Assembly (NCBI GenBank): GCA_973895155.1
Contig: OZ316891.1
Span: 24,861,899-24,925,898 of the forward strand
Source: Marsupella aquatica
Taxonomy: Eukaryota > Plantae > Marchantiophyta
Direction: 5' to 3'
Length of the DNA stretch: 64,000 nucleotides
The notes below the pieces were generated by a model that saw only the letters and a program-made list of their open reading frames with translations, ran no database searches and was not told where the DNA came from. Position 1 is the stretch's first letter; the number at the start of each line of letters is the position of its first letter. The translations under genes were made by a program, and so were the position numbers. Below, one piece after another: positions 24,560 through 51,134 of this stretch.

Positions 24560-27500
24560 TGTGGGAACTCCGTGTGGCATGTTTCCCAAGACCTCTAATC
24601 CCAAGAACTACCCTCAACCGATCATAAACCACTTGTTTATGTCCGTCCTCTTGCCTTATGGCAGCTATTCGGCTTGGAAATGCGATACTCTCCTTCGATC
24701 CACACTTATGGGACCGATTCTTTCACTGGGCTTGTGAATTGTACACAATTGAGACACCACAACTGAGTCTCCAATCAAGACAATGCGATTGTATTTTGCT
24801 CAACATTTCACCCTATCTGACTTAAATCGATCAAGCAACAGATATCATAACACTCAATTTCTTGGATGGCAAGAATCTGCAAACTATGCAACGAGGCCAA
24901 CTCAATTCAAACAATTGCTCAGAAATCCAAGGGAACTGCTGGTTTATTGATACCCTGCGGTCTAGATTTAGGCGAGAGCTTCCTGTGCTCACAACAATAC
25001 AGATTAACACTAAAGCCTTGACTAAGAAAAAGCCCCCAAAGCCACGCTGCCCAGGTTTTTATCCTTGCAGCGCGTCTAGGGAAAAACAACGGAAATCCTA
25101 ACCACCACACACGGCCTTCCACCGCGATAATTCTACCAAAAAACTATCACCTAAAAACTTGAATAGCCCGGAACCCTGTGTGAACCGAGCATCTACTACT
25201 ACCTAAGCCGACAGGGCGCTACTTGCCCTGTCCCATCCTACAACGCCCGCGCCCTTCTGGCCCAAGCCCTTCTCCTGCCGCCACGTCCTCCTTCCAACCG
25301 ATGACTGGCCCTCCTTAATTGTCAGATGACCGGGGGTAAGTCCGAATCTTCCGACTCTGCACCTTCTCCTGCCATCGGCCCCGGCCTGACCCCTTCGGCT
25401 TCCTCGACTTCAGGTTCTGGTTTGTCGGCCCCGGCCTCGGTCTCGGCATCCGCATCCGCATCCGCATCCTCCTGGGAAACGGCTAGGAGAGCCTTTGCCT
25501 TAACTTCCTCAATCCAAGCCTTTTCCCCGATGCGCTCGGTCTCGATAACCCACGGTTTCACGTTCTGTGCGTCCATAGAAGCAATACCATCATCTAAACC
25601 TGTTACCGCAGCTCTAAGTTGATCCGCAGTACTTACCTCTACCACCACTGCCTTCAAGGCCACAGTACCACAAATGTGAGCGGCCATACTCTCGACTTCC
25701 TCCGGAGTGGCTTTAAGGGCCTTAACTTTATTATCGCCTGGCCCCATGAACGTCTTTGCCAAGTCTGCCACCAATTGCATGGCTTTGCCCTCAGTCACGC
25801 TTGTCAACAAGGAGCTTGGCTTCGGCTTCGGCTTCACTATATTTCCGCCTACCATACTACTGACGGGAAGCCTTTCAGTTGGTGACCCATATCCCGCTTC
25901 AGCATACTTCTTTAATTTCTGTGTTTGATTGTCGGCACGCCTTTGCAACCCGATCATCTTATCCTTGGCCTCCTCCAATTCCTGAGATACGTATTCAACT
26001 TCATCGTTAAGCCGTAGTATCTCGGCCCTGGCCGTCTTCAACTCCTCATTTAACATCTGCACAATCTCCAACTCTTGCTTATCTATGGCTGCTTTCAAGG
26101 AGTCATTGATACCTTCCAGTTTTGTGACCTCATTCGTCCATGCCTGCTTTGTCCTGGTTAGCTCCTCCTGAAGCTCCTTGCTTATCTGTTGAACCCAGTT
26201 TAGGTGATCATTGGCCGCCGTGCACATGGCGTCATCATGCCTCTCACGCATGGCCTCCAACCGGTCGAGTAACTTATCATACTTCCTTTGGGCTTCTGCC
26301 AAGGCCTTCTCGCTCTGGGTGGCTTGCTCCTTAGCCGTCTTCCTGAGCCTCTCAACTTGGCGATTTAAACCCTATACTTCTGCTTTTGAATCGGCTAACT
26401 CCAACTCTATCTTCGTCAACTTTTCCTTGATCTGCTGGTTATCCAATTGGTAGTTTTCCAATTGGTTGTTTGCCACTTCCAATTCCTACTGCTTAGCCAA
26501 GAGATCCTACTGAGTTAGTTGACCAGACTTTGTCTTAGCAACTTTGGCCTCCATGGAGCGAAGCCGAGCAATCACTTCCTCCTTCTTCAGTCGCTCCAAT
26601 GTCATTGCCTCCTCCAGTCTCGTCTGATCAGCCATTTCCTTTCTAAGAAATGGCCCGGATTCCAACTCGTTGCCGAAGATTTCTAAGGCTAAGAGTCCAC
26701 ACATGTCTCCATACTCCTTAGCCTGATTTCTTGCATAGTTTGACCTCCCAGGTGATACTGGCATCTGCCATCGAGGTCGTCTCTCCCAAGCTTTTGCCCG
26801 TAATTGATCGAAGTCAGTGAGAGGTTCGGCTTGCCTCTCACTAAGCTATTTTATTCCTTTCGGCCACTCTCCTCCTGGTAGTTGGCATTCGTGTTCTGCA
26901 TTCCGGGCCCGCCACTCCTTAATCTTCTCATGTAGCCCGGCTTCAGCTTCCTTCATCTTGTTGAATTCCAATGGCATCACATCTGGTGGAGGAGATTCTG
27001 GCATTTTCTGGTCCTCCGGTTTGCCATAGAAGACCGCGGGAAGTCTTCTACAAAACCTTCCCATTGTTCTAACTCCTGGGACCGGCCTCTCCCCGTGATC
27101 AACATAGTCGTTGTTGTAATCATCCACATTGACCTGACTACCTAACATGCCGGCCTCTCCTCCAAAGCCCCCGATCTCCTCCTCTGAATATTGTTGGGCT
27201 GTTGCTGGTTGACCTTCCTCACGGGTCCGTTCACTTGGGGTCTTTTAGAAGCTCTTACTACCGGCCTCTCGTGGCCTCGGCTTACCTCCTCATCTGTCTC
27301 CGAATCCATTCGCTTGTCATATTTCTTTCTCTCTTTGGCAGTCATCTTCCTCTCGACCAACTGAATGCCTGCATATGGATTATTGCGAGTAGGCCGGCGT
27401 AACGGATTCCTCCCTACATCATATGTTATTACCTCTGGCTCCTTGATAGGGGAATGCTCCCGTTCTTGTGTTGCCTATGTTGCCGACCTCCTCCCGTGGC

Positions 27501-29047
27501 GTCGTATGTTTAGAGGCTCCTCGTCCTCCTCCACCTCCTCAAGTGGTGCAGTGATCTGCATCCGCTCCTGTATAGGCAACACTGGTGCAAAAGACTGGCT
27601 TCTTGCATATTGGCAAAGTAATTGCAGATGGTACCCTAGTCTGGATACCGCTCCCTCTCCAATGCTCTGCTTCTCTTCGTTTAATGCCTTCTTCAACTGC
27701 ATTAAGAGATAGCTGTTGTAGTCTCGGCTTGCATCGATATTCTCTACCAAAAATACCTGGGCTTTGCTGATTTCTGCTCTCGGCAAGGTACAATGCAATG
27801 TGACTCTCAGGAAATCAATCAGCTGCCCTATATGTGGGTTGGTACATTGATTCCTGAAAAACCTATTCTTAGTGGAAGGCCCTGGAAATGACCTGAACTG
27901 GTCATCCGGCAACATCTTCTTCTGTTCCACCTTTGTCTTCCTTCCTACTGGTAAAGCGAACACGGCTTCAATAAGCGCAGGTGTTAATTCAAACACCTTT
28001 CCATACAGCAGCGTTGTGTTGGAAGAAGCCTCCCAGCATCCCACGAAAACCAACAGATCCTCATCCGGTATGTCTACCATTCTCTAGGACAACCTGGCAA
28101 AGCCCTCCAACCCAGTGTCATTCATATATCCTGCATATTTATTATCTTGAACGGCACTGAAGACCTCATCCTCATCTCTTGCAAACTGTAATTGTAAATT
28201 GGCAGGTAACGTGTTCGTCCACCCTGTCATGTTTTTATCTTCTACAGCCCAATCTCTAATTGGCCCGGATTCCATCTTGATTGGTCTCTCCGACCTAGTT
28301 CGCTTTGCTAGAGTTGTAGATGCCAAAACTCCCTTGCGCTTCATCTCTTCAGCGCCTGAATACTCCCCAAGAAGGTTGCCTTCGTCCACTTCGCAGTGTG
28401 ACCCTTCAATTCCCAAAGTGGTTGCCCGGCGTTCTTGATTGCCTCCCTGATCCCCATGACCTTATTCTCCCAAATTAGCAATTCGTCAAGCTCCGCACTG
28501 GTGGGTGTCCACAAGAACTTTTCCAACACCTCCTCTGTACTTACGAATGCCAATTTGTGAATTCCCCACAATCGCGAAAGCTCTGCTCGTTCTCTGGCTG
28601 CACGCTCCGGCTCAACGTCTTCATACGTAGGTATCAGCTGCCTTGCTTCTTCAAGCAAACAGCCCCAAAACTTCCCTGCCTGATTCATTGTGTTCATTCC
28701 ACCAAATGCCAAGAACTTGCACAATTTCCCAAACCACCTCCCCTGATCAATCGGCAGCTGATTCCACCTCCCTAGGTTGATCGAACAAGCAATTGCACTA
28801 GTGTATAGAGTGTCGGTCCCCTCCCTACGAAGCCGCCTCCTGATGGCTTACCTGATCAAGCCCTGATTAGGTCATAACCCTAATCCTACTTAATCGCAAC
28901 CGTTGGATCAGATCCCATCACAATTTCCCCCGAACATATTGCAATCGGCTTCGATCCTTATACCTCCCTAATTATATCTACCTAATCTTTATTTAGCCAT
29001 TATTTTAGGCTTAATTAAGTACTTTGTGATCCTAGCACGGCATCACA
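24560..29047 (-). mobile_element. Solo LTR, family C (4.5 kb), carrying a decayed homolog of the family A LTR ORF (25322-28724)
   Basis: Reverse complement starts TGTGATGCCG and ends TTCCCACA. TSD CTCCA, offset by 2 nt on the left. Peptides NQAGKFWGCL, FRSFPGPSTKN, PGVRTMGRF, LQRRADNQT. Confidence 0.88.
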
Positions 29048-29657
29048 CTCCATTACCAGGAGGGGTACTGGCCAAAAGACAAGCCGAGACACATGCCCGG
29101 GTGCCGGAGGTAGGTAGCAAGGGGAAGGGACCAGCTACCAAAATAGGGAAGAAAAAGAAGCGGAAATCTTCTAGGTCTGGGAGTTATACGGCTTACCAAG
29201 CCATTGTGACCCAGGAGGTCAACCCGGCACCAACCTCTGGCATGATTACGGCAGTAGATCCACCTATTGAAGAAGGTGGGGATGGCAAGGCCGACACTTA
29301 GATTAGTGGGATGGCGGATCCACTGGTAGGAGCAACACTTGTGCTCCTGCCTTGCTGTACAGTTAGGTAGATTACAGGTAGGATAGATTAAGCTTATGCA
29401 ACAAAGTTCTGGACAGATCCGCTGCCAGGATAAATACCTGGGCAGCGGGGAGTCCAGGGCCTCTTCTTTAGCAAGTTTTTAGTTGCACCAGCAGAGCTAG
29501 GATCAAGTAGTAAGAGAAGCTCTCGGTTAGTTATACAGTGACCCTTGTGTATATTCATGTTTCCTCATGCCTAAGAACTGAATAGAGTTGGCCTCACGGC
29601 TTAGTTCGCAAAGCTTGTGTATGAGATGTACTGTTTGTATGGCAAGTGCATGGTATA

Positions 29658-32600
29658 TGTGATGCCTAGCCAGGAATCACTCGGCCAGTTAAGGGGGTAA
29701 AGCAGGAATACACCCTGGAAACACTTTAGTATAGGGACAAAACAAGAAGAATATAAATAATTAGGGGCGACTATGGAACCCGGGCCGAGGCCGGAGGTAA
29801 GAACGCTGGGGGTGAAAACTCGATTAGGGTTAGGGCGTACTAAGCGTCGGCGGCTGGGAAGGATCAACGGGAGGAAGGGCCGAAGGAGGAGAGGGGTAAG
29901 GAGCGCTTGCAGGAGACGGTGGCTCATTTGCGAGCAGGAACTAGGCAGACGACTACGGGAGGCCAACTACTGTCAGCTGCTTAGGCAAGCACTCGGGGAG
30001 GGAGTAGATACCAACGATCAACCTAAGGAGGGTATGAGCAACGTCAATCAAGCGGCACATTTCTGAGGATGCCTGTTTGAACGGGCAACTGAGTACATCA
30101 AGACTTACGAGGACGAAGAATCAGAAAGAGCAGCTCGAGAACGACAGGAGCTCGCTAGATTGTGGGAGCTGCAGAAAACGGCTTTCTTAGGAGGCAAACT
30201 CATCAAGGCCGAGTTCTTGTGGACTCCTACTTCCAATCAGCTTGACGATCTTCTGTTTTGCAAAGACAGCATCATCGGCATCCGAGAGGCCATCAAGAAC
30301 TGCAACGACATACACGAGGAATTAAAGGGTAGCACAGAAAGGTGGACCCAGGCAACAGTGCTAGGAGAAACCTCCACGGCAGCTGAGATGAAGAGGAAGG
30401 GAGTCATCAACAATGAAGCCACCCCGGCAAAAAGAACGAGGTCGGCGGCACCAAAGAAACCAGCCGAACAGCAGAGTAGGAGGCAGAGCAAAGCCGAGGA
30501 GGAGGAAAGCCACCCCATCAACGCCATTCCAACCAGGGATGACACTTGGAAGGGCTGGGCGGCAACTCTACCAATGGAGGTGCAACTACATTTTGCACGG
30601 GAGGAGGATGCATGCTTTACGGCCATGCAGACCAAGAAGTACCAAGGCTTCATGGCCGGATCCGGCTTGCAAGCCTTTGTACGATTACCATGGCTGAAGC
30701 CGGAGGTGCCGGATTCAGACCTATTAGAATTCGTGGGGTCATGGGAACCCGAGACCAATTGCACGAGGATATATGGGAAGGATTTCTATCTTACTCCCAA
30801 GGTGATTGCCGAAGTGTTTGGCTTGCCGATAGGCAATAAGACCAAGGTTGATACCAGGAAGACCTTGCCTGACAAAGAGTTCCGGTCGTTCCCCGGACCA
30901 TCAACGAAGAATGGCTTCTTCCGGAGCACCTGTACCAACCCGCACATTGGAGAGATGATCGACTTCTTGCGGGTAACCATGCATTGTAACTTGCCGAGGG
31001 CAGAGATCGGCAAGGCACAGGTCTATCTGGCAGAGAGACCAGACCCAAGCCGGGACTACAACGGGTACCTCCTCAACCAATTGAAGAAAATCTTGAAGGA
31101 GGAGCAGCAGGTAATCGGCATGGGGAGCGTGTCGCGGCTTGGCTATCACATGCCACTATTGTGCCGGTATGCCAGAGGTCAGACCTTTGCCCCGGTACTT
31201 CCCCTACAGGCAAGGGCACCAGTTCCGGAACAGAGACAGGCAATGGAGAAACCCAAACCGCCCTACAGTCCTACAATCGACCAGGTGTTTAGACCAAGAA
31301 CGGAGGACTTGCCGATGCAGCAACCAGGCATGCAGAGTCTGCTGAAGCTGCTGGAGAAAGAAAAGAGATCGGCATCGGCAACGACAACGGCAGTGGCAAC
31401 AATGCAGGACACTGCCCCAGAGGTCAACTTAAGCAGACTTAGAAGGGAAGACCCCTCTACCGGAGTCTCAAGCTCTGAATCTGAGGCAGAATTGCCGGAA
31501 GCTCCTACCAACGAAGAAGAGAGGGAGAAGCCGGAAGTAGAAGAAGTAGAGGAGGCAGTAGAGGACTGTGGCCATGATAACTCCGGCTATGGGTCGGACC
31601 ATCACATTCCAGGAGTAAGGACCTGTGGCCGGTTTATCCCCACACTTCCAAGGGTAGTACGAGGAGACCCCAACCAGCAGAGTAGCCCTGAGTCTCCTCC
31701 ACCAGATGTTGCTCCCCCGAGCTTTGACGGCATAAAATAGACGGCGCTGGAATTTCAGGAGCGAATCAGGCAGGAAGAGGAAGCAGCCCTGGCTAGGGAA
31801 AAGCATTTACCAGGAGGAGATTGGCCGGAGGACATTAGGCGGCTAGCCGAAAAAGGAAGCAAACCTCTAGCCACGATTGAAGAGACCCGCAAGACGGCTT
31901 GGGAGCAGAGGCCGCGATGGGCGATGCCGATCACTTCTACTTACTCCACCTACGCTAAGAATAGAGCCAGGGAGTATGGTGAGATGTGTGGGGAACTTGC
32001 GCTCGGCATCTTTGGGGAGGAATTGGAGGTAGGACCCTTTTTCCATAGGGAGCAGTTGGAGAAGCGCCAATTGGAAGAAGCGGTGGCCTTGGAAAGAAGC
32101 AAGAAGGATGAGGTCATCTGTCGGCTTAGGGAAAGGGAAGCCAAAATCAAGGACCTGAGGGCGGCCAAGAAAGCCCAAGATGAGCTGCGGATTAAACGGC
32201 ATGAGCTAAATATCATGTAGGGGCAGTTGGACGCAGCGCAGGCTGCTGGTCAGATTATCAAGGATAAACTGACTCAGACCCAGAGAGATTTGGCCGACGC
32301 AATCAAGGAGAGGGAGAAGTGGAAGCAAGAGCTGAGGAATGCAGAGGAGGCCCACATAACAGCTAACAACCGGGCCATGGCGGAGACCCAAAGAAAGGAA
32401 CAGGCGTTGAAAGGGGAGCTCGAGAAAAGCCGCGGAGCCCTTGAGCAGAAGGAGGCCGAGTTAGGGAAATCCTATCAAGGGATTATTGCACTGCAGTAGG
32501 AGCTTGCTTCCCTAACGGCCAGCTTCAAGGCCGACCTAAGGGAGAAGGACGTGATGCTCGATCAGACTTATGCCAAGATGAACCAGATGGAGTCTGTCAT

Positions 32601-34231
32601 CATTGCAGAGCTCGACAAGGAGCTAAGAGCAACCCGGGAGGAGAGGGCTACCTTGAAGAAGGAATTGGAGGAAGCCCACAGGGAGCAGGAGGAGGCCAAA
32701 AACGAGCTAGAGGGGGCACGTAAGGACCTGGATGAGACCCAAGAGGAGTTGGAGGAAATCACGAGGAAGATGGAGAACCTACAGCGGCGGGCCGACAACC
32801 AAACAGAGCGGCAGAAGAAACAAGCCGTAGTATTTAAATGCTTATCTGCAGCAGGTCCATCTCCCGTTGGGGCGAACCAGTTACCAGGGGTGGTAATTGC
32901 CGAAGGACAAGCTGCGCCACCTGCACCAGTGCTGGAAGTAAGTGGGAAGGGGAAGGGACCAGCTGCCGAGCCAGCGACGAAGAAGAAGCGGAAACCTTCA
33001 GGGTCAAGGAGTAATAGGACTCCACAGGCCGTGGTGATCAAGGAGGTAGACCCAGCACCGACCCCAGACAGGGTCACGGCTAAGGATCCAACTACCCTAC
33101 AAGAAGGGGAAGCCGAAGCCGTGGGAGTGGCTGAGGCCGAAGCCGTGGGTATTGCCGAGGCCGGTGTCGAGGCCGAAGCCGAAGGTGGACCCAGTCAGGC
33201 CGAGGGAGAGTTGACTCGGTCAAGGGCAGGTAATCTGTCAGTGGGCGGGCCAACGGCAGTGGCTGAGGAGGAAGTGTTGGGGGCGTCCATTGAGGATCCA
33301 CCACCGGTATCGTGACGGTGCAAGGGCGCCGTTCCTTTTAGAAAGGGCGGACGTGGAGGTAGGAGGCGTGAGTGGGCCGGGCGGGCGCTGATCTCCAAGT
33401 TTAGGATTAGGATCAGGACCAGGAGCGGCCCTGACACTTAGCTTAGTGGGATTGCGGTTCCACTGGTAGGAGCAACACTTGTGCTCCTGCCTTGCTGTAC
33501 ATAGGTAGATTCGGGCAAGTAGATTACTGTCAAGTAGATTAGGCTTACGCTGCAAAGAATTAGGCGGATCCACTACCAGGATAAGTACCTGGGCAGCGGG
33601 GAGCTCAAGGCCTCTTCTTTAGCAAGTTTTTAGTTTGCACCAGCCGGGTTGGGATCAAGTAGTAAGAGAAGCTCTCGGTTAGTTATACCGTGACCTTGTG
33701 TATATTCATGTTTCCTCATGCCTAAGAGCTGAATAGAGTTGGCCTCACGGCTTAGTTCGTAGAGCTTGTGTATGAGATGTACTGTTTGTATGGCAAGTGC
33801 ATGGTATGACTCAGTCAGAAGGAGTCATTTTACTATTTGTGTGTCACATTAACTTGTGTGAAGAGTGCCCACATCAACTAATAGGGAAAGGAAAGTAAGC
33901 AAGGGAGTGAGAGTTGGATGTGTCGAGCTGAGAGAGGTCTTAGCGACTTAACCAAGCCTATTGGGGATCATTCCGGCGGCGGAATCCAAACATACCTAAC
34001 AAGAAGGAGAGGTAGACAAGGGAAGGCCTAGAGTAGGCCGGCTTCATATCTCATGACCCGATGAAGGATCTGTCCAGTATATGTGTGTAAAATGTTAATA
34101 GATGTAGAAGAGGTTTAGCAGCGTCCCATGCCGCTAAGCCGCGGAAACGGCCCCGCCAAGCGCGAAACCTGCGGGAATCGGCTTGTGCAGGGGGGGTTTC
34201 TTGGGTTCAGGGAGCCATGGGACGCACCACA
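29658..34231 (+). repeat. 5' LTR (4,574 bp)
   Basis: TGTGATGCC...CACCACA, followed by the PBS. Confidence 0.96.
29773..33315 (+). pseudogene. LTR-encoded ORF in the 5' LTR: one 1,180-codon frame with 4 internal stops
   Basis: ORFs 29773, 30160, 31924, 32227 and 32551 share one frame. Stops at 30064, 31738, 32218 and 32497 are TGG/CAG in other copies. Confidence 0.85.
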
Positions 34232-34235
34232 TTTT

Positions 34236-34253
34236 TGGCGCTAGATGGAGGGG
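34236..34253 (+). promoter_or_regulatory. Primer binding site, tRNA-Asn type
   Basis: TGGCGCTAGATGGAGGG lies 4 nt after the LTR. It is complementary to the plant tRNA-Asn 3' end as recalled (...CCCTCCTTCTAGCGCCA), with one mismatch. Confidence 0.8.
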
Positions 34254-34300
34254 GCATTTCTTAAGCCGTGAGATATGAAGTTAGAAAGGAAGCATAGGTA

Positions 34301-37297
34301 ATGACTGAACCTACGCCAAGGGAGGAAAGAGCGATTCAACGGGAGAGAGCTTGACTGCAGCAGCTCACTGGGTGGCATGATACACAACGACTGAGAGGGG
34401 CAGAAAGAGCTGGTAGCTCCGAAGCTGGAAGTGGTGTCAAAGAAGAGATACCAGAAGAGGAGTCGGTAGGAAGACGCGAGTACCCAACCGACATGGGAGA
34501 ACCTGAGGCACGGCCAGACGAGAGGCCAGGGACCAGACTGAGCCAACGGTCGCGTATACATTACAAGGCATTTCATGGGAGAGGAGATGAGGATCCGGAC
34601 GAATGGTTGGATGATTTCGAAGGAACCGCTGCAGCAAATGGAGAATCGGCCATCAAGATGCAGATTCTTCCCGGCCTGTTCAAGGGTGAGGCTAGGCCTT
34701 GGTACAGAGCATTAGATGTGGAAGATCAAGCCATCTGGGATAGCTTCAGAACACTCTTTGTTAAGGAGTTTCGACCCATTGGAACTTCAGAACTAGCAGT
34801 GCTGAAGTTAGGACGACTTCGGTTTAAGGAGAACAAATCCTTCAGGAAGTTCTTGCAACGCTTTCAGAAACTGGTAAGACGTACAAAGACCAATGCATCT
34901 GAAGGTATGCAACTTCAATGGTTGGTGAATGCTTTGCCACAAAAGATGAGTTTTGCAATTAGGAAGGAGAACCCGGAGACTTTAGCCGATGCAATTAAGG
35001 ATATTCAATTATACATTAATGCTGATATCACAAGCCGGAAGAAACAGCTTAAGTCTGAGAGTTCCTCATCAGAGGAGGGATCACCCCATAAGAAAAAGGA
35101 TAAGAAAAAGAAACATTCTAAGAAGTCAAGAAGTGATAACTCAAGCTCGGATAGTGGAGGTAGCAAGAGTGAGTCATCTTCTAGTTCTGAAGAAGAAAAA
35201 ACTAGGAAGAGGAAGAGCAGAAGAAGAGGGAAGACGAAAGTCAAGCTGGAGGCTAAGCCACCAGATAACATTGTGGCCCTTACCGAACAACTTAAGGCTA
35301 TAATTGCAGAGGTAAAGCCGAAGAAGAAAGTAGTACAGGAGGATAGCTCTGTATGGTGTGCCTTATGTTATAAAACCGGACACCATAAAGATGCGTGTCC
35401 TAAGCTCAATACTAGTCATGTTCGGCATGTGGCCGAGATCAGACCGTGTCAGGGAGAAGTAGAGTACTTTTTAGGAGATGCCGCTGATAGTGTTTTTGGC
35501 ATCAGTGAGACTGGAGCACGGGACCTATCTAACCAACCTGCATCTCTCTAGTCAGGATTAAGGAACAATCTAGGAGAGATGTATCCTCGGATTATTCAGA
35601 ATCCGTCTGTACCTCCTAGGCCGAATGTGCAGAGATTTGCGGCATGCTATAACTGTGGTCAACCTGGCCATTTTGCTAGAGAATGCCCGAATGCACGTAA
35701 ACAAGGTGATGGACAACCAGCTCAGCTATGTATGGGATGCCGACAGGAGGGTCACATGCTAGGACAATGTCCTACTTGGTTGGCAGGATTGGCCGCAAAT
35801 CATAAACTTTTGCCGGTCAAGGTCTTGCCGCCAGGTACTACCCCAGGAGGAGTTCAAATCAACCACATCGAGCTCGGATGGCAAGTGGATGCCGAGGCAG
35901 AGTTTGGACCATCTGATGATGAGACCGAAGCCCTATCAACCTTCTCAGAAGAGGATTTAGATCATGATTGCTACCGGGTCTCTACTCGATCAACCAGAAG
36001 GAAGGAAAGGTGGGATGGGCTAGCCAAAAATAAAGGGAAGGATAAAGAAGAGAAGATTGACTCTTCGTCAACATCAACAGAAGGAGAAGGAAAGGCGCCG
36101 GCAACACAGGTAAGCCATGAGCTCACCAGCGACCCCAATCCTTCACAGGACAGCGATTTCAATCGAGATCACCCTAAGTTGTTCTACCCCTCTATTACGG
36201 CTAGTGTTAAGGAACAGCTGAGAGAATTAGAAACCCTGGAGAATACCGAAGCCATTGCCAAGGATGTGAAATGAGCAAAAGCATTGTTTGCTTTGGAGAA
36301 TCCAACAGCTGTGGAGATTAGCATGGCAAAACAAGCCGAATCCAAGGTGGAGACACCACCAGGGGAGAAGCCGATTGTTCCCTATGACCTGGCTAAAGAT
36401 GTACTAGAATCTAGAGTCTCGGCAACAGTAGGTCAACTACTGAAAAATAGCCCGTACTTCCGGAAGCAATTAAGGAAGGCTATTCTCGGCAAGCCAAGAT
36501 TACCCAAGGTAGCAACCAAATCCGACGTGCTGATGATAGAAGAAGATCAAGGAGCCCCCGCTTTACCATTAATGATTCAAGGAGAATTATTACTTCGGGT
36601 ACCCATTGATGGAGGATCAGGGGTGTGTATTATGATTGATTCAACAGCAAAAGGGTGGGGTCTAACACCAGAGATGACTGGAAGAGTGTTGAACATGGCC
36701 AATGGTTATCAGGTCATTCCTACGGGAGTGTTAACCGGCATCAAAACAGAGATAGGAGGCATCTTCTTTAGCATTAACTATGTAGTAATGAAGCCGGTAA
36801 ACCCTACATCATTTTGGCTATTGATTGGTAGGCCGTGGCTATACCTAGCCAAGGTTATAGAGGATTGGGGTAAGAAGGAGTTCACTTTTGGGACCCCCTC
36901 TATCACGGTATCCTGGGATACCAAGGATGACCGCAGAAGAAGCATCAGGGAGGTAGACGGGTACGACAGTGGACTGGAATCAGCCGATGAGGTACGATGG
37001 TTAGAATGCCTCGCTGACCAAACCGAAGAAAGTGTCTTTGGACCAGAGGTATCCCCCAGCGGACTATGGCAAGAACCTATGGAAGGTGACTTGGAGGATT
37101 GTGACGATGAAGCTAAGGACTGCTTTGCCATAGAGTCCACCTTTTTAGCTTCAATCCCAGAGGAAGCACAAGAGGTAAGTGGGTTGGATGAAATGGCTAA
37201 GTGGGGAGCAATACCAGAGGCCGCGGTGGATTTTCCTCAGGCGTTGTGGCAGAGCCGGCAGGATCCACAACGCCATCGATCATCGGCAAGGAGTTAG
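34301..37297 (+). pseudogene. gag: gag-protease frame (capsid, three CCHC knuckles, aspartic protease) with stops at 34352, 35549 and 36272
   Basis: FHGRGDEDPDEWL; CALCYKTGHHKDAC, CYNCGQPGHFAREC, CMGCRQEGHMLGQC; VPIDGGSGV...LIGRPWL. All in one frame. Confidence 0.9.
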
Positions 37298-40200
37298 AAA
37301 CCAAGGGATTGGCATACAAGCCGATTATGAGGGCAGAACAAATCGAGGCCCTATTAGAGGCCGGGAGAGCACAGCGGCCTGACCCTCAGGAAGAAGAGGC
37401 GGATGAGATGCACAGACACTATCCAGAGCCGAGGCAGGAAGGGAAGCCGACCACCAATTCAAAACCGGATAGACAAGCAAGGGGACAATCTGTGGGCACC
37501 AAGATGGCAACCGACTCGGCTAGTACTGCCGAGATTCCAGTCTATGGAGGTATGAGACTGGAGAGGTTGGAGGCCGGGCTGGACCCAAATTTAAAGAAGC
37601 AGATTAATATGATCCAAGCTCGACAATATCGGAAGCTTGACTTAGGAGAAGGAAGGGAACTGAACTTAGGGAGAGACCTAGCACCCGAACTTGAGAAAGA
37701 GATCAGTGACTTACTAATTGAATTCCAGGATGTGTTCGCATGGAGTCATCAAGATCTGAAAGGAGTAGACCCAAAACTGGGAGAACACCAAATTGATCTC
37801 ATGTTAGGAGCCAAATCAATTCGACAACCGATTCGAAGGATGAACCCTAAGTATTCCCTGATGGTCAAGACAGAAATCGACAAACTAGTGGAAGCCGGAT
37901 TTATCACTCCAGTCCTACATTCAGATTGGGTGTCTCCAATTGTGATAGTTCCCAAGAAAGCTGGACCCGATGGTAAACCCAAGATCCGGGTTTGTCAGGA
38001 TTACAGAAAGCTGAATGAAACAACGTTAAAAGACCATTTTCCCTTACCCTTTACTGATATGGTACTAGACATGGTAGCCAGTCATGAACTATATTCCTTC
38101 ATGGATGGGTACTCTGGTTATAACCAAATCAGGATTCGGCAGGAAGACCAAATCAAGACGGCCTTCATCACGGAATGGGGGATCTATGTCTTCAATCGTA
38201 TGCCGTTTGGACTCTGCAACGCACCAGCTATGTTCCAACAATTGATGGTGAACATTTTTCATGATTACTTGAGAAAGTTCATGGAAATCTTCATTGATGA
38301 CTTTGCAGTATTTGGGAGGGCATTGAAACATGCTAAATATCTCAGGAAAACCTTCATGAGATGCAGAGAGGTAGGTCTCAAGTTACACCCAGATAAATGT
38401 TTCTTTGCAGTAACCGAGGGGGTGCTCCTAGGTCACAAGGTATCAAAGAAGGGCATTGAGATTGACAAGGGTAAGCTAGCAGTATGGCTTGACATCATGC
38501 GACCTAAGAACATAAAGGATGTAAGATCCTTCTTAGGCTGCATTGGGTATTATCGTCGGTTTATTAAAGATTTTGCCAAGCTAGCTTTACCATTAACCAA
38601 CATGCTCAAGGCAGGGGCAGACTTCGAACCCACACCCGAACGAGTCACAGCGGTGGTAGAATTGAAGCAGATATTAGTTGAGGCCCCAGTCATGATAGCA
38701 CCGGACTGGAACAAAGATTTTCATGTTTTTGTAGATGTCTCGGGCTTCTGTATCGGCTCAGTACTAAGTCAGTTGGATGAGAAAGGAAGGGACCATCCCA
38801 TATACTTTGCAAGCCGTCAGCTTGCCGATGCCGAACGGAACTACTCCACCACAGAAAGAGAAGCATTAGGAGTCATTTATTCATGTAAAAAGTTTAGGCA
38901 TTATTTGCTAGGTTACAAGGTCATCTTTCATACCGATCATGAAAGTTTGAAGTACCTAGTCAATAAACCGGACCTTACAGGCAGAGTAGCAAGATGGATT
39001 TTGCTATTACAAGAGTTTGACTACGAGCTAAAGATCAAGCCGGGAAAGTTACATGCCAATGCCGACTTCTTCTCAAGGATCACAGGAGAACCAGCCACGG
39101 ATTGCATCGATGATCGATTTCCCGACGAGGAACTATTCGTTGTGGACTTAGCTGAAACATGGTACCCTGAGATTTTACAATTTCTCAGCACGTCCAGATT
39201 ACAGCTAGGGCTAACCCGAGAACAAGCCGCAGTCTTTTTACGGAAGGTCAGACAGTATCAGTGCATTAAAGGCATACTGCACAAGCATGGAATCAACGGC
39301 ACGATTCAAAGATGTTTGGAAAAGGGAGAGGTAAAACGAGTCTTACGGGCTATGCATGGAGAAGAGGCCGGAGGACATTTTGCCCCAGTAACCACGGCTA
39401 AAAAGATATTAAATGCCGGTTACTGGTGGCCTACCTTGCACAGGGATGTCTATCAGTTTATCAAACAATGCGATCCTTGTCAGCGAGCAGGAGGACCAAG
39501 GGCATCCACCAGACATCCACTGCACCCTATTCTACCTCTGGCACCATTCGAAAAGTGGGGTATTGATTACATCGGACCTCTGAAACCACTGACCCACCCT
39601 CGACGAAACAAGTACATCATCCTGGCTACGGATTATGCAACTAAGTGGGTGGAGGCCAGGCCGACCACGAAGGATGATGCAATTACGATGGCTAGATTCA
39701 TGTATGAGCAGATCTTCACCAGGTATGGAGCACCCCTACAATTAGTTAGTGATAGAGGAACCCATTTTTTGAATGATATAATTAGTCGTTTAAATGAACA
39801 GTATTTAGTTAGACATAGGCCTACTACTCCTTACCACCCAAAGGCAAATGGATTGACAGAACGAGCCAATGGAATTATAGGAAAGATATTGAACAAGACA
39901 GTAGCTCAGAACAAACTCGATTGGGATGATAAATTGTTTGCTGCTGTTTTTGCTTACAATTTAGCCTATAAATCCACTACCGGTCATACACCCTTCTTCT
40001 TAACCTTTGGACAAGAAGCCTTGGTACCCATGCAACTTGAGATACCGACATTTCAAGTTACAATTGAGGAAAGAGCCTCAGCGGAGGAGAGCCTAAAAGA
40101 GCGAGAATATAGGTTAGAAGCTTTAGAGGAGGCGAGAATGATTTCAGCCGAGAGAGTAGAATATAGGCAGAATATCATGAAGCAGCAGTATGATAAAAAA

Positions 40201-40470
40201 TTGAAAGTAGTTATTATTCACACCGGTGATCTTGTGTTACTTTATGACAGTAGGTATAGTAGGTTTCCAGGGAAGCTTTACACTCGCTGGTTAGGACCCT
40301 TTAGAGTAACCATGAGGTTCTCCAATGGCTCCATACAATTGGCCAACATTACGGGAGAAGTGTATCCAGTTCGTATTCACTACGACCGCCTCAAGAAATA
40401 CTATATGGACGAAGATGAAGTTGTTCACGAGGACGCTTCACAATTAAGTGGGGAGCTATGTGATGCCTAG
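37201..40470 (+). CDS. pol: RT-RNase H-integrase polyprotein (intact, -1 frame relative to gag-PR)
   Basis: WVSPIVIVPK, DYRKLN, DGYSGYNQI, MPFGLCNAP, FIDDF; RNase H FVDVSG...EREAL; integrase HHCC, WGIDY, SDRG, NGLTER, WLGPF. No chromodomain and no second RNase H. Confidence 0.96.
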   Translation: MGSNTRGRGGFSSGVVAEPAGSTTPSIIGKELETKGLAYKPIMRAEQIEALLEAGRAQRPDPQEEEADEMHRHYPEPRQEGKPTTNSKPDRQARGQSVGTKMATDSASTAEIPVYGGMRLERLEAGLDPNLKKQINMIQARQYRKLDLGEGRELNLGRDLAPELEKEISDLLIEFQDVFAWSHQDLKGVDPKLGEHQIDLMLGAKSIRQPIRRMNPKYSLMVKTEIDKLVEAGFITPVLHSDWVSPIVIVPKKAGPDGKPKIRVCQDYRKLNETTLKDHFPLPFTDMVLDMVASHELYSFMDGYSGYNQIRIRQEDQIKTAFITEWGIYVFNRMPFGLCNAPAMFQQLMVNIFHDYLRKFMEIFIDDFAVFGRALKHAKYLRKTFMRCREVGLKLHPDKCFFAVTEGVLLGHKVSKKGIEIDKGKLAVWLDIMRPKNIKDVRSFLGCIGYYRRFIKDFAKLALPLTNMLKAGADFEPTPERVTAVVELKQILVEAPVMIAPDWNKDFHVFVDVSGFCIGSVLSQLDEKGRDHPIYFASRQLADAERNYSTTEREALGVIYSCKKFRHYLLGYKVIFHTDHESLKYLVNKPDLTGRVARWILLLQEFDYELKIKPGKLHANADFFSRITGEPATDCIDDRFPDEELFVVDLAETWYPEILQFLSTSRLQLGLTREQAAVFLRKVRQYQCIKGILHKHGINGTIQRCLEKGEVKRVLRAMHGEEAGGHFAPVTTAKKILNAGYWWPTLHRDVYQFIKQCDPCQRAGGPRASTRHPLHPILPLAPFEKWGIDYIGPLKPLTHPRRNKYIILATDYATKWVEARPTTKDDAITMARFMYEQIFTRYGAPLQLVSDRGTHFLNDIISRLNEQYLVRHRPTTPYHPKANGLTERANGIIGKILNKTVAQNKLDWDDKLFAAVFAYNLAYKSTTGHTPFFLTFGQEALVPMQLEIPTFQVTIEERASAEESLKEREYRLEALEEARMISAERVEYRQNIMKQQYDKKLKVVIIHTGDLVLLYDSRYSRFPGKLYTRWLGPFRVTMRFSNGSIQLANITGEVYPVRIHYDRLKKYYMDEDEVVHEDASQLSGELCDA
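37228..37287 (+). promoter_or_regulatory. -1 programmed frameshift signal: G_GAT_TTT + stem/pseudoknot
   Basis: Heptamer is in the gag-PR frame, then a 5-nt spacer and a perfect 10-bp stem (37240-37249 with 37265-37274). Confidence 0.75.
40446..40458 (+). promoter_or_regulatory. Polypurine tract (inside the pol coding sequence)
   Basis: AAGTGGGGAGCTA directly precedes the TG of the 3' LTR. Confidence 0.8.
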
Positions 40471-43400
40471 CCAGGAATCACTCGGCCAGTTAAGGGGGTA
40501 AAGCAGGAATACACCCTGGAAACACTTTAGTATAGGGACAAAACAAGAAGAATATAAATAATTAGGGGCGACTATGGAACCCGGGCCGAGGCCGGAGGTA
40601 AGAACGCTGGGGGTGAAAACTCGATTAGGGTTAGGGCGTACTAAGCATCGGCGGCTGGGAAGGATCAACGGGAGGAAGGGCCGAAGGAGGAGAGGGGTAA
40701 GGAGCGCTTGCAGGAGACAGTGGCTCATTTGCGAGCAGGAACTAGGCAGACGACTACGGGAGGCCAACTACTGTTAGCTGCTTAGGCAAGCACTCGGGGA
40801 GGGAGTAGATACCAACGATCGACCTAAGGAGGGTATGAGCAACGTCAATCAAGCGGCACATTTCTGGGGATGCCTGTTCGAACGGGCAACTGAGTACATC
40901 AAGACTTACGAGGACGAAGAATCAGAAAGAGCAGCTCGAGAACGACAGGAGCTCGCTAGATTGTGGGAGCTGCAGAAAACGGCTTTCTTAGGAGGCGAAC
41001 TCATCAAGGCTGAGTTCTTGTGGACTCCTACTTCCAATCAGCTTGACGATCTTCTGTTTTGCAAAGACAGCATCATCGGCATCCGAGAGGCCATCAAGAA
41101 CTGCAATGACATACACTGGGAATTAAAGGGTAGCACAGAAAGGTGGACCCAGGCAACAGTGCTAGGAGAAACCTCCACGGCAGCTGAGATGAAGAGGAAG
41201 GGAGTCGTCAACGATGAAGCCACCCCGGCAAAAAGAACGAGGTTGGCGGCACCAAAGAAACCAGCCGAACAGCAGAGTAGGAGGCAGAGTGAAGCCGAGG
41301 AGGAGGAAAGCGACCCCATCAACGCCATTCCAACCAGGGATGACACTTGGAAGGGCTGGGCGGCAACTCTACCAATGGAGGTGCAACTACATTTTGCACG
41401 GGAGGAGGATGCATGCTTTACGGCCATGCAGACCAAGAAGTACCAAGGCTTCATGGCCGGATCCGGCTTGCAAGCCTTTGTACGATTACCATGGCTGAAG
41501 CCGGAGGTGCCGGATTCAGACCTATTAGAATTCGTGGGGTCATGGGAACCCGAGACCAATTGCACGAGGATATATGGGAAGGATTTCTATCTTACTCCCA
41601 AGGTGATTGCCGAAGTGTTTGGCTTGCCGATAGGCAATAAGACCAAGGTTGATACCAGGAAGACCTTGCCTGACAAAGAGTTCCGGTCGTTCCCCGGACC
41701 ATCAACGAAGAATGGCTTCTTTCGGAGCACCTGTACCAACCCGCACATTGGAGAGATGATCGACTTCTTGCGGGTAACCATGCATTGTAACTTGCCGAGG
41801 GCAGAGATCGGCAAGGCACAGGTCTATCTGGCAGAGAGACCAGACCCAAGCCGGGACTACAACGGGTACCTCCTCAACCAATTGAAGAAAATCTTGAAGG
41901 AGGAGCAGCAGGTAATCGGCATGGGGAGCGTGTCGCGGCTTGGCTATCACATGCCACTATTGTGCCGGTATGCCAGAGGTCAGACCTTTGCCCCGGTACT
42001 TCCCCTACAGGCAAGGGCACCAGTTCCGGAACAGAGACAGGCAACGGAGAAACCCAAACCGCCCTACAGTCCTACAATCGACCAGGTGTTTAGACCAAGA
42101 ACGGAGGACTTGCCGATGCAGCAACCAGGCATGCAGAGTCTGCTGAAGCTGCTGGAGAAAGAAAAGAGATCGGCATCGGCAATGACAACGGCAGTGGCAA
42201 CAATGCAGGACACTGCCCCAGAGGTCAACTTAAGCAGACTTAGAAGGGAAGACCCCTCTACCGGAGTCTCAAGCTCTGAATCTGAGGCAGAATTGCCGGA
42301 AGCTCCTACCAACGAAGAAGAGAGGGAGAAGCCGGAAGTAGAAGAAGTAGAGGAGGCAGTAGAGGACTGTGGCCATGATAACTCCGGCTATGGGTCGGAC
42401 CATCACATTCCAGGAGTAAGGACCTGTGGCCGGTTTATCCCCACACTTCCAAGGGTAGTACGAGGAGACCCCAACCAGCAGAGTAGCCCTGAGTCTCCTC
42501 CACCAGATGTTGCTCCCCCGAGCTTTGACGGCATAAAATAGACGGCGCTGGAATTTCAGGAGCGAATCAGGCAGGAAGAGGAAGCAGCCCTGGCTAGGGA
42601 AAAGCATTTACCAGGAGGAGATTGGCCGGAGGACATTAGGCGGCTAGCCGAAAAAGGAAGCAAACCTCTAGCCACGATTGAAGAGACCCGCAAGACGGCT
42701 TGGGAGCAAAGGCCGCGATGGGCGATGCCGATCACTTCTACTTACTCCACCTACGCTAAGAATAGAGCCAGGGAGTATGGTGAGATGTGTGGGGAACTTT
42801 GCGCTCGGCATCTTTGGGGAGGAATTGGAGGTAGGACCCTTTTTCCATAGGGAGCAGTTGGAGAAGCGCCAATTGGAAGAAGCGGTGGCCTTGGAAAGAA
42901 GCAAGAAGGACGAGGTCATCCGTCGGCTTAGGGAAAGGGAAGCCGAAATCAAGGACCTGAGGGCGGCCAAGAAAGCCCAAGATGAGCTGCGGATTAAACG
43001 GCATGAGCTAAATATCATGCAGGGGCAGTTGGACGCAGCGCAGGCTGCTGGTCAGATTATCAAGGATAAACTGACTCAGACCCAGAGAGATTTGGCCGAC
43101 GCAATCAAGGAGAGGGAGAAGTGGAAGCAAGAGCTGAGGAATGCAGAGGAGGCCCACATAACAGCTAACAACCGGGCCATGGCGGAGACCCAAAGAAAGG
43201 AACAGGCGTTGAAAGGGGAGCTCGAGAAAAGCCGCGGAGCCCTTGAGCAGAAGGAGGCCGAGTTAGGGAAATCCTATCAAGGGATTATTGCGCTGCAGCA
43301 GGAGCTTGCTTCCCTAACGGCCAGCTTCAAGGCCGACCTAAGGGAGAAGGACGTGATGCTCGATCAGACTTATGCCAAGATGAACCAGATGGAGTCTGTC

Positions 43401-45033
43401 ATCATTGCAGAGCTCGACAAGGAGCTAAGAGCAACCCGGGAGGAGAGGGCTACCTTGAAGAAGGAATTGGAGGAAGCCCACAGGGAGCAGGAGGAGGCCA
43501 AAAACGAGCTAGAGGGGGCACGTAAGGACCTGGATGAGACCCAAGAGGAGTTGGAGGAAATCACGAGGAAGATGGAGAACCTACAGCGGCGGGCCGACAA
43601 CCAAACAGAGCGGCAGAAGAAACAAGCCGCAGTATTTAAATGCTTAGCTGCAGCAGGTCCATCTCCCGTTGGGGCGAACCAGTTACCAGGGGTGGTAATT
43701 GCCAAAGGACAAGCCGCGCCACCTGCACCAGTGCTGGAAGTAAGTGGGAAGGGGAAGGGACCAGCTGCCGAGCCAGCGACGAAGAAGAAGCGGAAACCTT
43801 CAGGGTCAAGGAGTAATAGGACTCCACAGGCCGTGGTGATCAAGGAGGTAGACCCAGCACCGACCCCAGACAGGGTCACGGCTAAGGATCCAACTACCCT
43901 ACAAGAAGGGGAAGCCGAAGCCGTGGGAGTGGCTGAGGCCGAAGCCGTGGGTATTGCCGAGGCCGGTGTCGAGGCCGAAGCCGAAGGTGGACCCAGTCAG
44001 GCCGAGGGAGAGTTGACTCGGTCAAGGGCAGGTAATCTGTCAGTGGGCAGGCCAACGGCAGTGGCTGAGGAGGAAGTGTTGGGGGCGTCCATTGAGGATC
44101 CACCACCGGTATCGTGACGGTGCAAGGGCGCCGTTCCTTTTAGAAAGGGCGGACGTGGAGGTAGGAGGCGTGAGTGGGCCGGGCGGGCGCTGATCTCCAA
44201 GTTTAGGATTAGGATCAGGACCAGGAGCGGCCCTGACACTTAGCTTAGTGGGATTGCGGTTCCACTGGTAGGAGCAACACTTGTGCTCCTGCCTTGCTGT
44301 ACATAGGTAGATTCGGGCAAGTAGATTACTGTCAGGTAGATTAGGCTTACGCTGCAAAGAATTAGGCGGATCCACTACCAGGATAAGTACCTGGGCAGCG
44401 GGGAGCTCAAGGCCTCTTCTTTAGCAAGTTTTTAGTTTGCACCAGCCGGGTTGGGATCAAGTAGTAAGAGAAGCTCTCGGTTAGTTATACTGTGACCTTG
44501 TGTATATTCATGTTTCCTCATGCCTAAGAGCTGAATAGAGTTGGCCTCACGGCTTAGTTCGCAGAGCTTGTGTATGAGATGTACTGTTTGTATGGCAAGT
44601 GCATGGTATGACTCAGTCAGAAGGAGTCATTTTACTATTTGTGTGTCACATTAACTTGTGTGAAGAGTGCCCACATCAACTAATAGGGAAAGGAAAGTAA
44701 GCAAGGGAGTGAGAGTTGGATGTGTCGAGCTGAGAGAGGTCTTAGCGGCTTAACCAAGCCTATTGGGGATCATTCCGGCGGCGGAATCCAAACATACCTA
44801 ACAAGAAGGAGAGGTAGACAAGGGAAGGCCTAGAGTAGGCCGGCTTCATATCTCATGACCTGATGAAGGATCTGTCCAGTATATGTGTGTAAAATGTTAA
44901 TAGATGTAGAAGAGGTTTAGCAGCGTCCCATGCCGCTAAGCCGCGGAAACGGCCCCGCCAAGCGCGAAACCTGCGGGAATCGGCTTGTGCTGGGGGGGTT
45001 TCTTGGGTTCAGGGAGCCATGGGACGCACCACA
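40459..45033 (+). repeat. 3' LTR (4,575 bp), with the LTR ORF at 40574-44117
   Basis: Matches the 5' LTR apart from scattered substitutions and one extra T near 42800. Stops at 40775 and 42539. Confidence 0.96.
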
Positions 45034-46243
45034 GTATAACTCAGTCAGAAGGAGTCATTTTGCTATTTGTGTGTCGCATTAACTTGTGTGAAGAGTGCCC
45101 ACATCAATGAAGGGAAGTAGAAAGGGAGTGAGAGTTGGATGTGTCAAGCTGAGAGAGGTCTTAGCGGCTTAACCAAACCAATTGGGGATCATTCCGGCGG
45201 CGGAATCCAAACATACCTAATGGAAGACCAGGAGAGGAATACAAGGGAGGGCCTAGAATAGGCCGGCTAAGTATCTCATGACCCGATGAAGGATCTGTCC
45301 AGTATATGTGTGTAAAATGTTAATAGTAGTTGAAGGAGAGTTAGCAGCGTCCCATGCCGCTAAGCCGAGGAAACGGCCTCGTCAAGGACGAAACCTGCGG
45401 GAATCAGCTTAAGCAAGGGGGTTTTCTTGGGTTTGGGGAGCCATGGGACACACCACAGTATTGGAGATGAAGCAGGGTCTTGCAATTGAAGTGGACGCAT
45501 CGACAACGGAGCTACAAAAGAAATGCGAGACAGTTATCGTGCATGTTGATCGGAGCCGAAAGCCAAGAGTCAAGGCCAAGAATGAATCTACAGCTTCTAG
45601 TGAATCAACTTGCTCTCATAAAAAAAAGTAAGTATGCCCCATAGGATTTAGTAAGGGATTTTTGCTCTTCTTTAGATGAGGCAATTTGACCCCGATTGAT
45701 ACTAGCGGCGAGCGCTATTACTAGATCCAAATCTGTTTAGTAATGTATCTCTATCTTTCAGGGGGAAGGAAGTTGGATGCCACCGATGATGTAAAAGAGG
45801 ACGCTACTCCTCAAGCCTTTGAAGCTAATACTGCTGCGGAAAATACACCAGATCTGGGAACCCTTGGGGAGAGTGGACAAGCAGTGGTTCCTGTGGACGC
45901 CACAAGTATGAAGAAGAAGAAAAAGAGAGGAGCAGTTGATGATAGGCTCGAATCTTCTTCTCGAGATTAGGTTGCATCAACTATTGCAGAGAGATGTAGG
46001 GAATTTCAAACGGAAGTCTACTTGACATTGTTTTGTTGAGTCAAGTGTTATAGAATGTTTTGATTCGCTGTTTAACAAGGGAGAGAAGCCAAAATGGGTT
46101 TCTAATATTGAAGGTTGGGGGAATCAGCCTTATGGGCAAACCAATTATTACCTTATAAATTTTTTCAGACCTAAACTGGTCTAGGCATGCTGGAACGTAT
46201 ACTGAGGTCACGCAGACGTGACCATTTTTAAGGGGGGGGTGCA

Positions 46244-46564
46244 AGTCGCGGAACTCAACAGTTACCTTAACACTTAGCTCCGGCGTTGCTGACTCCGACG
46301 CCAAGCTCCCTTATGGTCCAGGCTCGGATAGGCCATCCGGGGAGGACTTAGCATGGGGCGACTTGTGGGCATATATTGGGAAGTGGCACTGGCAAAGGCA
46401 AGGCGCCAAGCCGGTGACACACACTAAGGACCTTGGCTAGCTGGGAGCTGGTCGGGTCAAGGGGGATATGGGCTGGGTTCAAGGTCGACCGTCCGGACCC
46501 CCGAACGGTGTCACGAGGACTTAAAGTTAAGAGGGGCTCCTCGGGTAAACTGCGCGTTTCTAGT
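46244..46564 (+). mobile_element. Start of an AGT-type LTR, preceded by a G-rich PPT and truncated by a gypsy LTR
   Basis: AAGGGGGGGGTGCA|AGTCGCGGAACTC. Homologous to the reverse complement of ~48850-49134. Confidence 0.65.
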
Positions 46565-47264
46565 TGTGATTGGGACAGGCGACAAACACTTTTCGGAGCA
46601 AACTCTCACTCCTTTATTTTTTTTACTTTTCTCACAATGGTTACAATGGGTGCCCTTGAGTAAGCTTGCTTGCAAGAGTTTGGTAGCTGACCCTTTGGCG
46701 GGCCGCTACCTCTAACTTGTCGAGCTGAACTCCTAGAGTGACTATCTACTCAAAATCTGACGGAAAAACTCTCCTCCTTAGCTCACAAAACCAAATCTGA
46801 CTAGCTACTCCACTAGTCTAAAACAGCTCACACAAAACTTGGGCCTGGACCAACGAGGCTCCAAACTCAAAAATTCCCCACCTGGATCCAACACTCGCAC
46901 AGAACTCCAAAACCGTCGCACAACAGTCAAGTTCCGTAGAACGGAGCAGAACTCACAAAACATAACTCAACAAATCTCAAAAGACAACTGCCAACCTTAA
47001 TGAGCCAAGGCTCAAGTCTTAAATAGCATCCGAAACCCAACCTTCCAGCCTGAGCTAGCTGCCATCAACAAGGCTCATCCAAACTCCAAGCCTGGTGACT
47101 CACCCGAACACCAAACCTAGTGACGACGAGTCACCCAAACATCAAACCTCAATCCATCCAACCAAGCAGCCCCTCCGAGTCAGCATGCACGCAACCCAAC
47201 CGGGAGGCCTCGCCCATCATCCCCTATAAAAGCCATTCCTGAGCCAAAATCTTTCGGCACGACA
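46565..47264 (-). repeat. 3' LTR (700 bp) of the minus-strand gypsy element
   Basis: Reverse complement TGTCGTG...ATCACA, preceded by GCGGGAGGA. TATA-like TATTTAAG and AATAAA inside. Lies just after the integrase C-terminus. Confidence 0.7.
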
Positions 47265-49134: not shown

Positions 49135-49295
49135 CCTTGCCACCTTCAAGCAAACTTGTTTTGGCTCAAGTGTTGCTTGTCCAACTTATTCTCGTAAATC
49201 AGAACCCAATCCCCTTCCTTGACCAAGACAAGCCTCAACCAATTAGTCCTGTCAAACCTGCCCTTGTTCCTTAACCTCGCCATCTTCAATTGCTT

Positions 49296-51089: not shown

Positions 51090-51134
51090 ATCGATCAGCT
51101 TCTCAAGAACCGCCTTGACATCAGTAATGTGATC

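Follow-up and report, generated by a model that had tools for sequence, protein, structure and literature searches.

A gene under purifying selection within the long terminal repeats of a Ty3/gypsy retrotransposon of the liverwort Marsupella aquatica

Genes carried by long terminal repeats (LTRs) are familiar from retroviruses, as MMTV sag, the overlapping part of HIV nef, and foamy virus bet. Annotation, surveys of extra open reading frames (ORFs) and models of shrinking genomes all take it that LTRs, solo LTRs included, have no coding content. The extra ORFs described from plant LTR retrotransposons are internal, or the point is left unaddressed, in those sections of the reports that we draw on (PMC7264820, PMC11963269, PMC12786077, PMC1142308, PMC12885004); one such gene, GENE23 of Grande, encodes a nuclear accessory protein and has its own promoter (PMC7264820). 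The LTRs of non-chromoviruses reach about 5 kb, according to parts of PMC6317226, PMC11963269 and PMC7264820. A full-text literature search, with subscription papers mostly outside its coverage and the sources seen in part, turned up no plant element whose LTR contains a gene. The stretch analysed here, termed the window, comprises 64,000 nucleotides of Marsupella aquatica (GCA_973895155.1, contig OZ316891.1, positions 24,861,899 to 24,925,898). It contains a full-length Ty3/gypsy element of 15,376 bp (29658-45033, + strand) whose LTRs each hold a long gene, and solo LTRs, of the same and of divergent families, that hold this gene or homologs of it. That the gene has been under selection, and that it lies inside true LTRs, we regard as close to certain.

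Self-comparison of the window revealed a direct repeat, 29658-34231 and 40459-45033, of 99.1% identity over 4,577 columns. The left member, copy A, is 4,574 bp long and the right member, copy B, 4,575 bp, both on the + strand; each begins with TG and ends with CA. The target-site duplication (TSD) GTATA flanks the whole (29653-29657 and 45034-45038), the primer-binding site (PBS; 34236-34253, +) starts with TGG 4 nt past the 5' LTR, and a polypurine tract (PPT; 40446-40455, +) ends 3 nt ahead of the 3' LTR. All the marks by which a first-pass annotation, made from the sequence alone, had fixed the LTR limits were thus located at these borders. Within copies A, H, G and J (the last three are introduced below) neither a terminal repeat nor a PBS was found, the first 500 bases of each being unrepeated elsewhere in the unit. 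Because of their TG..CA ends, the shared TSD, the PBS and PPT at the borders and the lack of any repeat or PBS within the units, the two repeats are true LTRs and not independent insertions; their Kimura two-parameter distance of 0.0084 marks the insertion as young. The PBS, whose first 9-mer is unique in the window, is presumably of tRNA-Asn type; no tRNA gene occurs in the 64-kb window, and the literature search yielded nothing on this match.

The first-pass annotation had proposed a single sense frame of about 1,180 codons in each LTR. In copy A this frame (29773-33315) is indeed distinct, with 4 internal stops as against 52 and 50 in the other two + frames; in copy B (40574-44117) it can be read only by allowing for a 1-bp frameshift near 42798 and two stops. 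Across the five copies of the family, A to E, which are 85-99% alike, internal stops occur at 13 positions, all of which, just as had been claimed, are read as sense by one or more of the other copies. At 12 of them the other copies have CAG, CGA or TGG, as methylation-linked decay would give, a cause that we infer. Not all of the stops are private: that at codon 656 recurs in three of the five copies (A, B and C), whose sequences are similar to one another at this place. The first stop of A is a sense codon in nearly all the contig depth of four public runs (two studies, one of them possibly the source of the window), whose contig sets span all 30 bins and are uninformative on ends and copy number.

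The gene is shorter than had been proposed. Substitutions between copies show no codon-position bias in codons 1-87 of the frame (A vs E, 17/19/17, p=0.93; none in any of the six testable pairs) and a strong one in codons 88-1025 (A vs E, 123/76/214, p=2e-16). The diverged copy H can be aligned only from codon 87 on; in A, B and D no ATG occurs between offsets 116 and 377 of the LTR; and the ATG at offset 377 (30034 in A) is kept, with its context, in all five family copies. The ATG at 29773 stands 21 nt from the start of the sole TATAAA of the 5' LTR (29752-29757, +; offset 95), which is kept in copies A to E and is the likely promoter of the LTR gene; H has words resembling a TATA box at offsets 72 and 86. 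Transcription normally begins downstream of an ATG so placed. We rejected the ATG at 29773 as the start since codons 1-87 are unselected; on this ground, and given the alignment limit of H and the constancy of the ATG at 30034, the gene likely begins at 30034, codon 88 of the original frame, and comprises about 1,093 codons. So defined it occupies 30034-33315 (+) in copy A, with four internal stops, and 40835-44117 (+) in copy B, with the codon-656 stop and the 1-bp insertion near 42798.

Among the five family copies the ratio of nonsynonymous to synonymous substitution rates (dN/dS) of the LTR frame is 0.24-0.35 in nine of ten pairs, that is, purifying selection rather than the neutral evolution that would have spoken against a gene. 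The tenth pair, A-B, gives 0.64, on few changes and with post-insertion decay. The ratio falls to 0.10-0.20 in codons 261-480, and in other frames it is 0.80-1.59, save in the antisense frame that shares third positions. For codons 88-1025 the observed values of 0.23-0.29 compare with means of 0.48-0.74 in neutral simulations that included transition and methylation bias (12 settings). Insertions and deletions between A and C tell the same story: all four in the frame are multiples of 3, and both of those in the tail are of 1 bp. About 72% of the LTR is selected gene.

The remaining gene-bearing units are solo LTRs. Three belong to the same family: C (51839-56461, -; 94%; TSD CTTTT), D (7688-12393, +; 94.5%; damaged at its 5' end, with CTAGG on either flank) and the older E (17398-45457, +; about 85%; in four pieces, TSD GTATC/GTATT). 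The core profile of the protein detected three more: H (24573-29047, -; 4,475 bp; TSD CTCCG/CTCCA), of a sister family, whose homologous gene is 56% identical in the core, and two of divergent families, G (18546-22382, -; 3,837 bp; TSD GATTG; 26%) and J (58486-62525, -; 4,040 bp; TSD CGGAT; 22%). Each is bounded by TG..CA and a 5-bp TSD, and in each the gene is followed by a tail of 0.75-1.28 kb; we class them as LTRs from their ends and TSDs, the window holding no internal regions for them. That four divergent LTR families share the gene-in-LTR layout goes beyond what the first-pass annotation had noticed. Since G, H and J hold a homologous gene at 22-56% protein identity, the layout is, on this comparison, old and lineage-wide. 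Altogether, 35,203 of the window's 64,000 bases belong to gene-bearing LTRs. The older solo LTR E is the insertion site of G, of H and of the full element, a hint of targeting or clustering. The gene region of G (19529-21975, -) consists of two overlapping frames of 218 and 633 codons, a frameshift or a two-ORF variant, and its upstream part is weakly similar to J; J itself contains, at about 59150-59530, a small AT-rich insertion with inverted ends.

A homolog outside an LTR was found in one of 79 fetched loci, L001, by a core profile built without it (E 3.8e-6); L001 is also the sole fetched locus in the reverse transcriptase (RT) clade of the element. Its order is gag-pol, purine tract, a 745-codon sense-strand homolog, a second purine tract and an LTR of about 1 kb, a length comparable to that of the tails behind the LTR gene. 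Its purine tracts, at 3722-3780 and 6534-6583, stand on either side of the extra gene; the stop of that gene is followed by an AATAAA, which suggests a separately ended transcript. In the Athila-type locus L002 a 1,267-codon extra gene stands ahead of the PPT, and other Athila-type loci likewise have long extra genes there; the PBS of L001 and L002 is of Asp type, different from that of the full element. Because these genes all lie before the PPT, the internal position is likelier to be ancestral, and the comparison suggests that the gene was captured into the LTR from between pol and PPT. The earlier proposal that an accessory gene had been absorbed into U3 stands to this extent: a selected gene sits inside true LTRs, there are two copies of it per element, a conserved TATA lies upstream, and L001 keeps an internal homolog as absorption predicts. 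Two sets of candidates were discarded in the course of this comparison. A 6.2-kb repeat in L002 that might have passed for a gene-bearing LTR is assembly redundancy, the gene preceding the PPT, and profile matches to L003, L008, L010 and L013 had come via L002 and were gone once it was removed.

The internal region contains a gag-protease frame (34355-37297, +; Retrotrans_gag and zf-CCHC, with two internal stops) and, in the -1 frame relative to it, an open frame for RT, RNase H (RH) and integrase (37201-40470, +) that crosses the PPT and stops within 12 nt of the start of the 3' LTR. Gag, protease, RT, RH and integrase thus follow one another between LTRs with PBS and PPT, the arrangement of Ty3/gypsy. 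Within the -1 overlap, G GAT TTT at 37228-37234 is in the right phase; we take it to be of a slippery-site type known from plant viruses. Over 103 nt the fold 3' of it (-35.5 kcal) is lower than that of every one of 100 mononucleotide shuffles; over 73 nt it is unexceptional, 23 of 100 shuffles being as low. The corresponding junction of L001 carries an in-frame stop, and an exact second copy of the PPT 10-mer occurs at the protease/RT junction of the element (37199-37208), possibly an internal plus-strand primer, or chance. No Pfam Chromo match follows the integrase, pol terminating in the LTR, and no RVT_3 match indicates an additional RNase H (aRH) in the approximately 100 residues between RH and the integrase zinc finger; the native RH motifs are undegraded. 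By its domains, then, the element is a non-chromovirus Ty3/gypsy.

Its named pol relatives are led by Calypogeia, Riccia and Marchantia. In a midpoint-rooted FastTree of 172 RT-RH rows (a coverage threshold of 75% left 100 of the 120 proteins and 71 of the 79 loci), which has no labelled references, the element is joined to two Calypogeia rows (SH support 100), and these together fall in a 40-row Riccia/metagenome clade (support 100), apart from a 66-row angiosperm clade; a first search of metagenomes in which the RT of the element itself served as query gave no match. The first-pass annotation had suggested placing the RT relative to Phygy, Selgy, Athila and Tat; this reference-free tree supplies the grouping with Calypogeia, and the comparison with those lineages is by features. 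TSDs are of 5 bp in all six insertions checked. Phygy has a 4-bp NCGN TSD, a tRNA-Trp PBS and no extra ORF, and Selgy a 4-bp TSD and a length of 4.4-6.7 kb (the sections used of PMC6317226); membership of Phygy is ruled out by the 5-bp TSDs, that of Selgy by TSD and the 15,376 bp length, and that of the aRH-bearing Tat lineages (TatI-III, Ogre, Retand) by the missing additional RNase H domain.

The predicted protein consists of a conserved N-terminal part, a conserved core domain (30553-31212, +; codons 261-480), an acidic, proline-rich linker, a proline-free charged block (32053-32832, +; codons about 761-1020) and a KKKRK motif. As the first-pass annotation had predicted, there is a long candidate coiled coil, with heptad-like windows clustering at residues about 946-1015 of the charged block, and no transmembrane segment, the maximum Kyte-Doolittle hydropathy over 19-residue windows being 0.98. 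A full HMMER scan yielded 21 homologs; of ten looked up, two carry names, both Calypogeia fissa. Word-indexed protein searches found none, the second of them having covered only 1,303-3,720 residues.

The same annotation had likened the domain to plant mobile domain (PMD) and Athila ORF1-type proteins, and of this a weak lead is left. No Pfam family fits: PMD, ATHILA and Transposase_32 gave no match for the LTR protein or its 21 homologs, and the same library detected Transposase_32 and PMD in six of ten extra ORFs of the fetched loci. The hhalign probability was 0.9% with a Transposase_32 set, 0.5% with a PMD ORF and 8.7% with an L002-type set, such profile comparisons aligning one helix-hairpin motif; two low-confidence structure models (pLDDT 55-58) share that motif as their best part. 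Atlas neighbours at 0.82-0.86 are plant clusters together with clusters of DUF1985, Transposase_32, ATHILA and PMD, these four all at 0.82, to be read as a lead only. A PDB sequence search gave no match, and neither did Foldseek against PDB and viral models at E<=0.001, which is uninformative with a pLDDT-55 model. Kinship with PMD-like accessory domains is plausible on this showing. PMD proteins have a silencing role in Arabidopsis and are also encoded by gypsy elements, according to part of PMC5418596.

How such a gene might work can be pictured as follows. The TATA at offset 95 would start an mRNA just past the ATG at 29773, making that at 30034 the first start codon, and this transcript would be terminated by the poly(A) site that the LTR itself provides within its last ~900 bp; a second promoter in the same ~900 bp would start the genomic RNA, so that the gene would lie in U3 and reverse transcription would put it in both LTRs. 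The product, with its globular core, acidic linker, coiled coil and basic KKKRK motif, would be a soluble nuclear protein that acts in trans on the chromatin or transcription of the element. Intact copies would complement broken ones, and solo LTRs would stay complete transcription units. Because the codon-656 stop recurs in A, B and C, whose haplotypes are alike around it, a stop-bearing LTR has likely been copied, as trans action would allow. Taken whole, this reading of a moved and selected LTR gene, probably in U3, with its own promoter and a soluble nuclear trans-acting product, seems to us somewhat better than an even bet; for the position in U3 by itself we would put the chances rather higher, and for the nuclear role a little below even. 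To go further and see in solo LTRs promoter-gene-terminator cassettes for a trans-acting chromatin or anti-silencing factor of about 1,090 residues, a design long kept by several families, is speculative and probably too bold.

The strongest competitor, which we nonetheless think unlikely, places the gene in U5 or in a long R. The offset-95 TATA would then be the main promoter and genomic RNA would begin with the extra gene, in the manner of elements with a 5' extra ORF; gag-pol would be reached by splicing or re-initiation, and minus-strand strong-stop DNA would exceed 4 kb. A single promoter would be enough, and the upstream TATAAA is the sole one in LTR A and kept in A to E; against this the L001 homolog lies 3' of pol, the tail has the length of an ordinary LTR, and T/TG-rich poly(A)-type sequence, a weak signal, reaches its highest density, in each of A, H, G and J, at 300-600 bp from the 3' end. 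Less probable still, and leaving the location in the LTR unchanged, is a structural or movement protein (of the particle, env-like, or for passage from cell to cell): the long predicted coiled coil would suit one, and in its 3' location and sense direction the L001 homolog matches the Athila 'env-like' slot (PMC7264820), whereas the protein has no transmembrane or signal-like stretch, at a maximum hydropathy of 0.98, and its low-confidence model matched nothing in the viral fold library.

That the frame is a passenger, useful formerly as an internal gene and decaying since its capture, could be argued from the want of an intact frame in any of the eight copies of the window and from the codon-656 stop in three of five family copies. 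We consider it very improbable: selection is evident between A and C, only 6% apart and both already in the LTR layout (dN/dS 0.25-0.27), the frame persists across families 22-56% identical, and nearly all of the public contig depth is sense at the first stop of A. Finally, the 4.6-kb units might be independent small elements, each a gene between short LTRs, that happen to flank gag-pol, and such units do stand alone six times in the window; the TSD around the whole, the PBS and PPT at its exact borders, the pol stop inside the 3' unit and the unrepeated interiors of A, H, G and J refute this for the present element, and we give it next to no credence.

Several observations weigh against the selected, moved U3 gene as we picture it. 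None of the eight LTR copies in the window has an intact frame; the last 155 codons (1026-1180) show position bias in only one of six pairs and are weakly constrained; the copy pairs in the dN/dS comparison are not independent, and in one of the 12 simulation settings the minimum among 60 neutral runs was 0.27, under the observed 0.29. The limits of U3, R and U5 and both promoters are predicted from sequence, the LTR tail of copy A lacks a canonical TATAAA, and no Pfam, PDB-sequence or fold match bears on a nuclear role. The polarity of the move rests on one close relative, L001, and the element's working PPT-LTR junction resembles the terminal junction of L001, not its upstream tract, so that a switch to that tract is a poor fit. 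Of 16 comparisons made for a PPT remnant behind the gene, only two put it first, and both concern the copy in which it had originally been noticed by eye: in A it was the best of the whole LTR for two of four queries, with 12 and 22 of 200 shuffles as high, and it was not repeated in H, G or J, so that a vestigial PPT is unsupported. Since the junction is like the terminal one of L001 and no PPT remnant can be replicated, recombination or junction duplication is as likely a capture route as a plain PPT switch.

The rest of the window holds other mobile or possibly mobile sequences. A frame at 1880-3289 (-), adjoining a long, unassigned frame at 3595-5217 (-), has a weak N6_N4_Mtase match (E 1.5e-5, just under the cut-off), which would be a DNA methyltransferase fold of prokaryote type in a plant, possibly transposon-borne. 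The 1,076-codon frame at 12700-15930 (+), with one stop, has a DUF7869 domain (E 3.5e-42) and looks transposase-like by eye. A distant, decayed gypsy element (about 46200-58480, -; 24% pol identity) hosts solo LTR C and contains an inverted-repeat insertion (46244-46499 / 48888-49134). An open frame at 63395-64000 (-) is by eye like an Ulp1-type protease; these are often transposon-borne.

If the gene is expressed, solo LTRs would amount to an extensive family of hidden genes, and with the cassette the function of a plant retrotransposon accessory protein could be tested directly, tractable relatives such as Marchantia being at hand. Were the cassette idea true, removal of elements by recombination would multiply a helper gene instead of eliminating it. 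The layout could also explain some very long LTRs, and it would be a plant parallel to the LTR genes of retroviruses. Like these, the liverwort element has an accessory gene in the LTR that is duplicated at each replication; the retroviral proteins are, by contrast, unrelated, several times shorter, and those of infectious animal viruses.

Among plant elements, Ogre (ORF1, with PMD) and Retand/Grande (ORFs with Transposase_28 or SMC-like matches) share with it accessory genes that are conserved family-wide and combine a globular domain with a coiled coil; their genes, unlike the present one, are described as internal and in Retand/Grande are antisense, and no Pfam link joins them to the LTR protein. 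The aRH-less Tat Z1/Z2, reported in Marchantia, are alike in bryophyte host range, in lacking aRH and in their undegraded native RH motifs; the comparison is by description only, and in the parts used of PMC10508981 no LTR gene is mentioned for them. From Athila the element differs in that its RT lies outside the clade of angiosperm rows, and in that the extra ORF of Athila stands between pol and PPT, whereas in the liverwort element pol runs directly up to the PPT and the extra gene is part of the LTR. In its features it nevertheless resembles Athila, as far as the clade table of PMC6317226 goes: both lack aRH and chromodomain, both have a 5-bp TSD, the PBS types of Athila include Asn (12%), the presumed type here, and both, as L002 illustrates, carry an extra gene of similar build.

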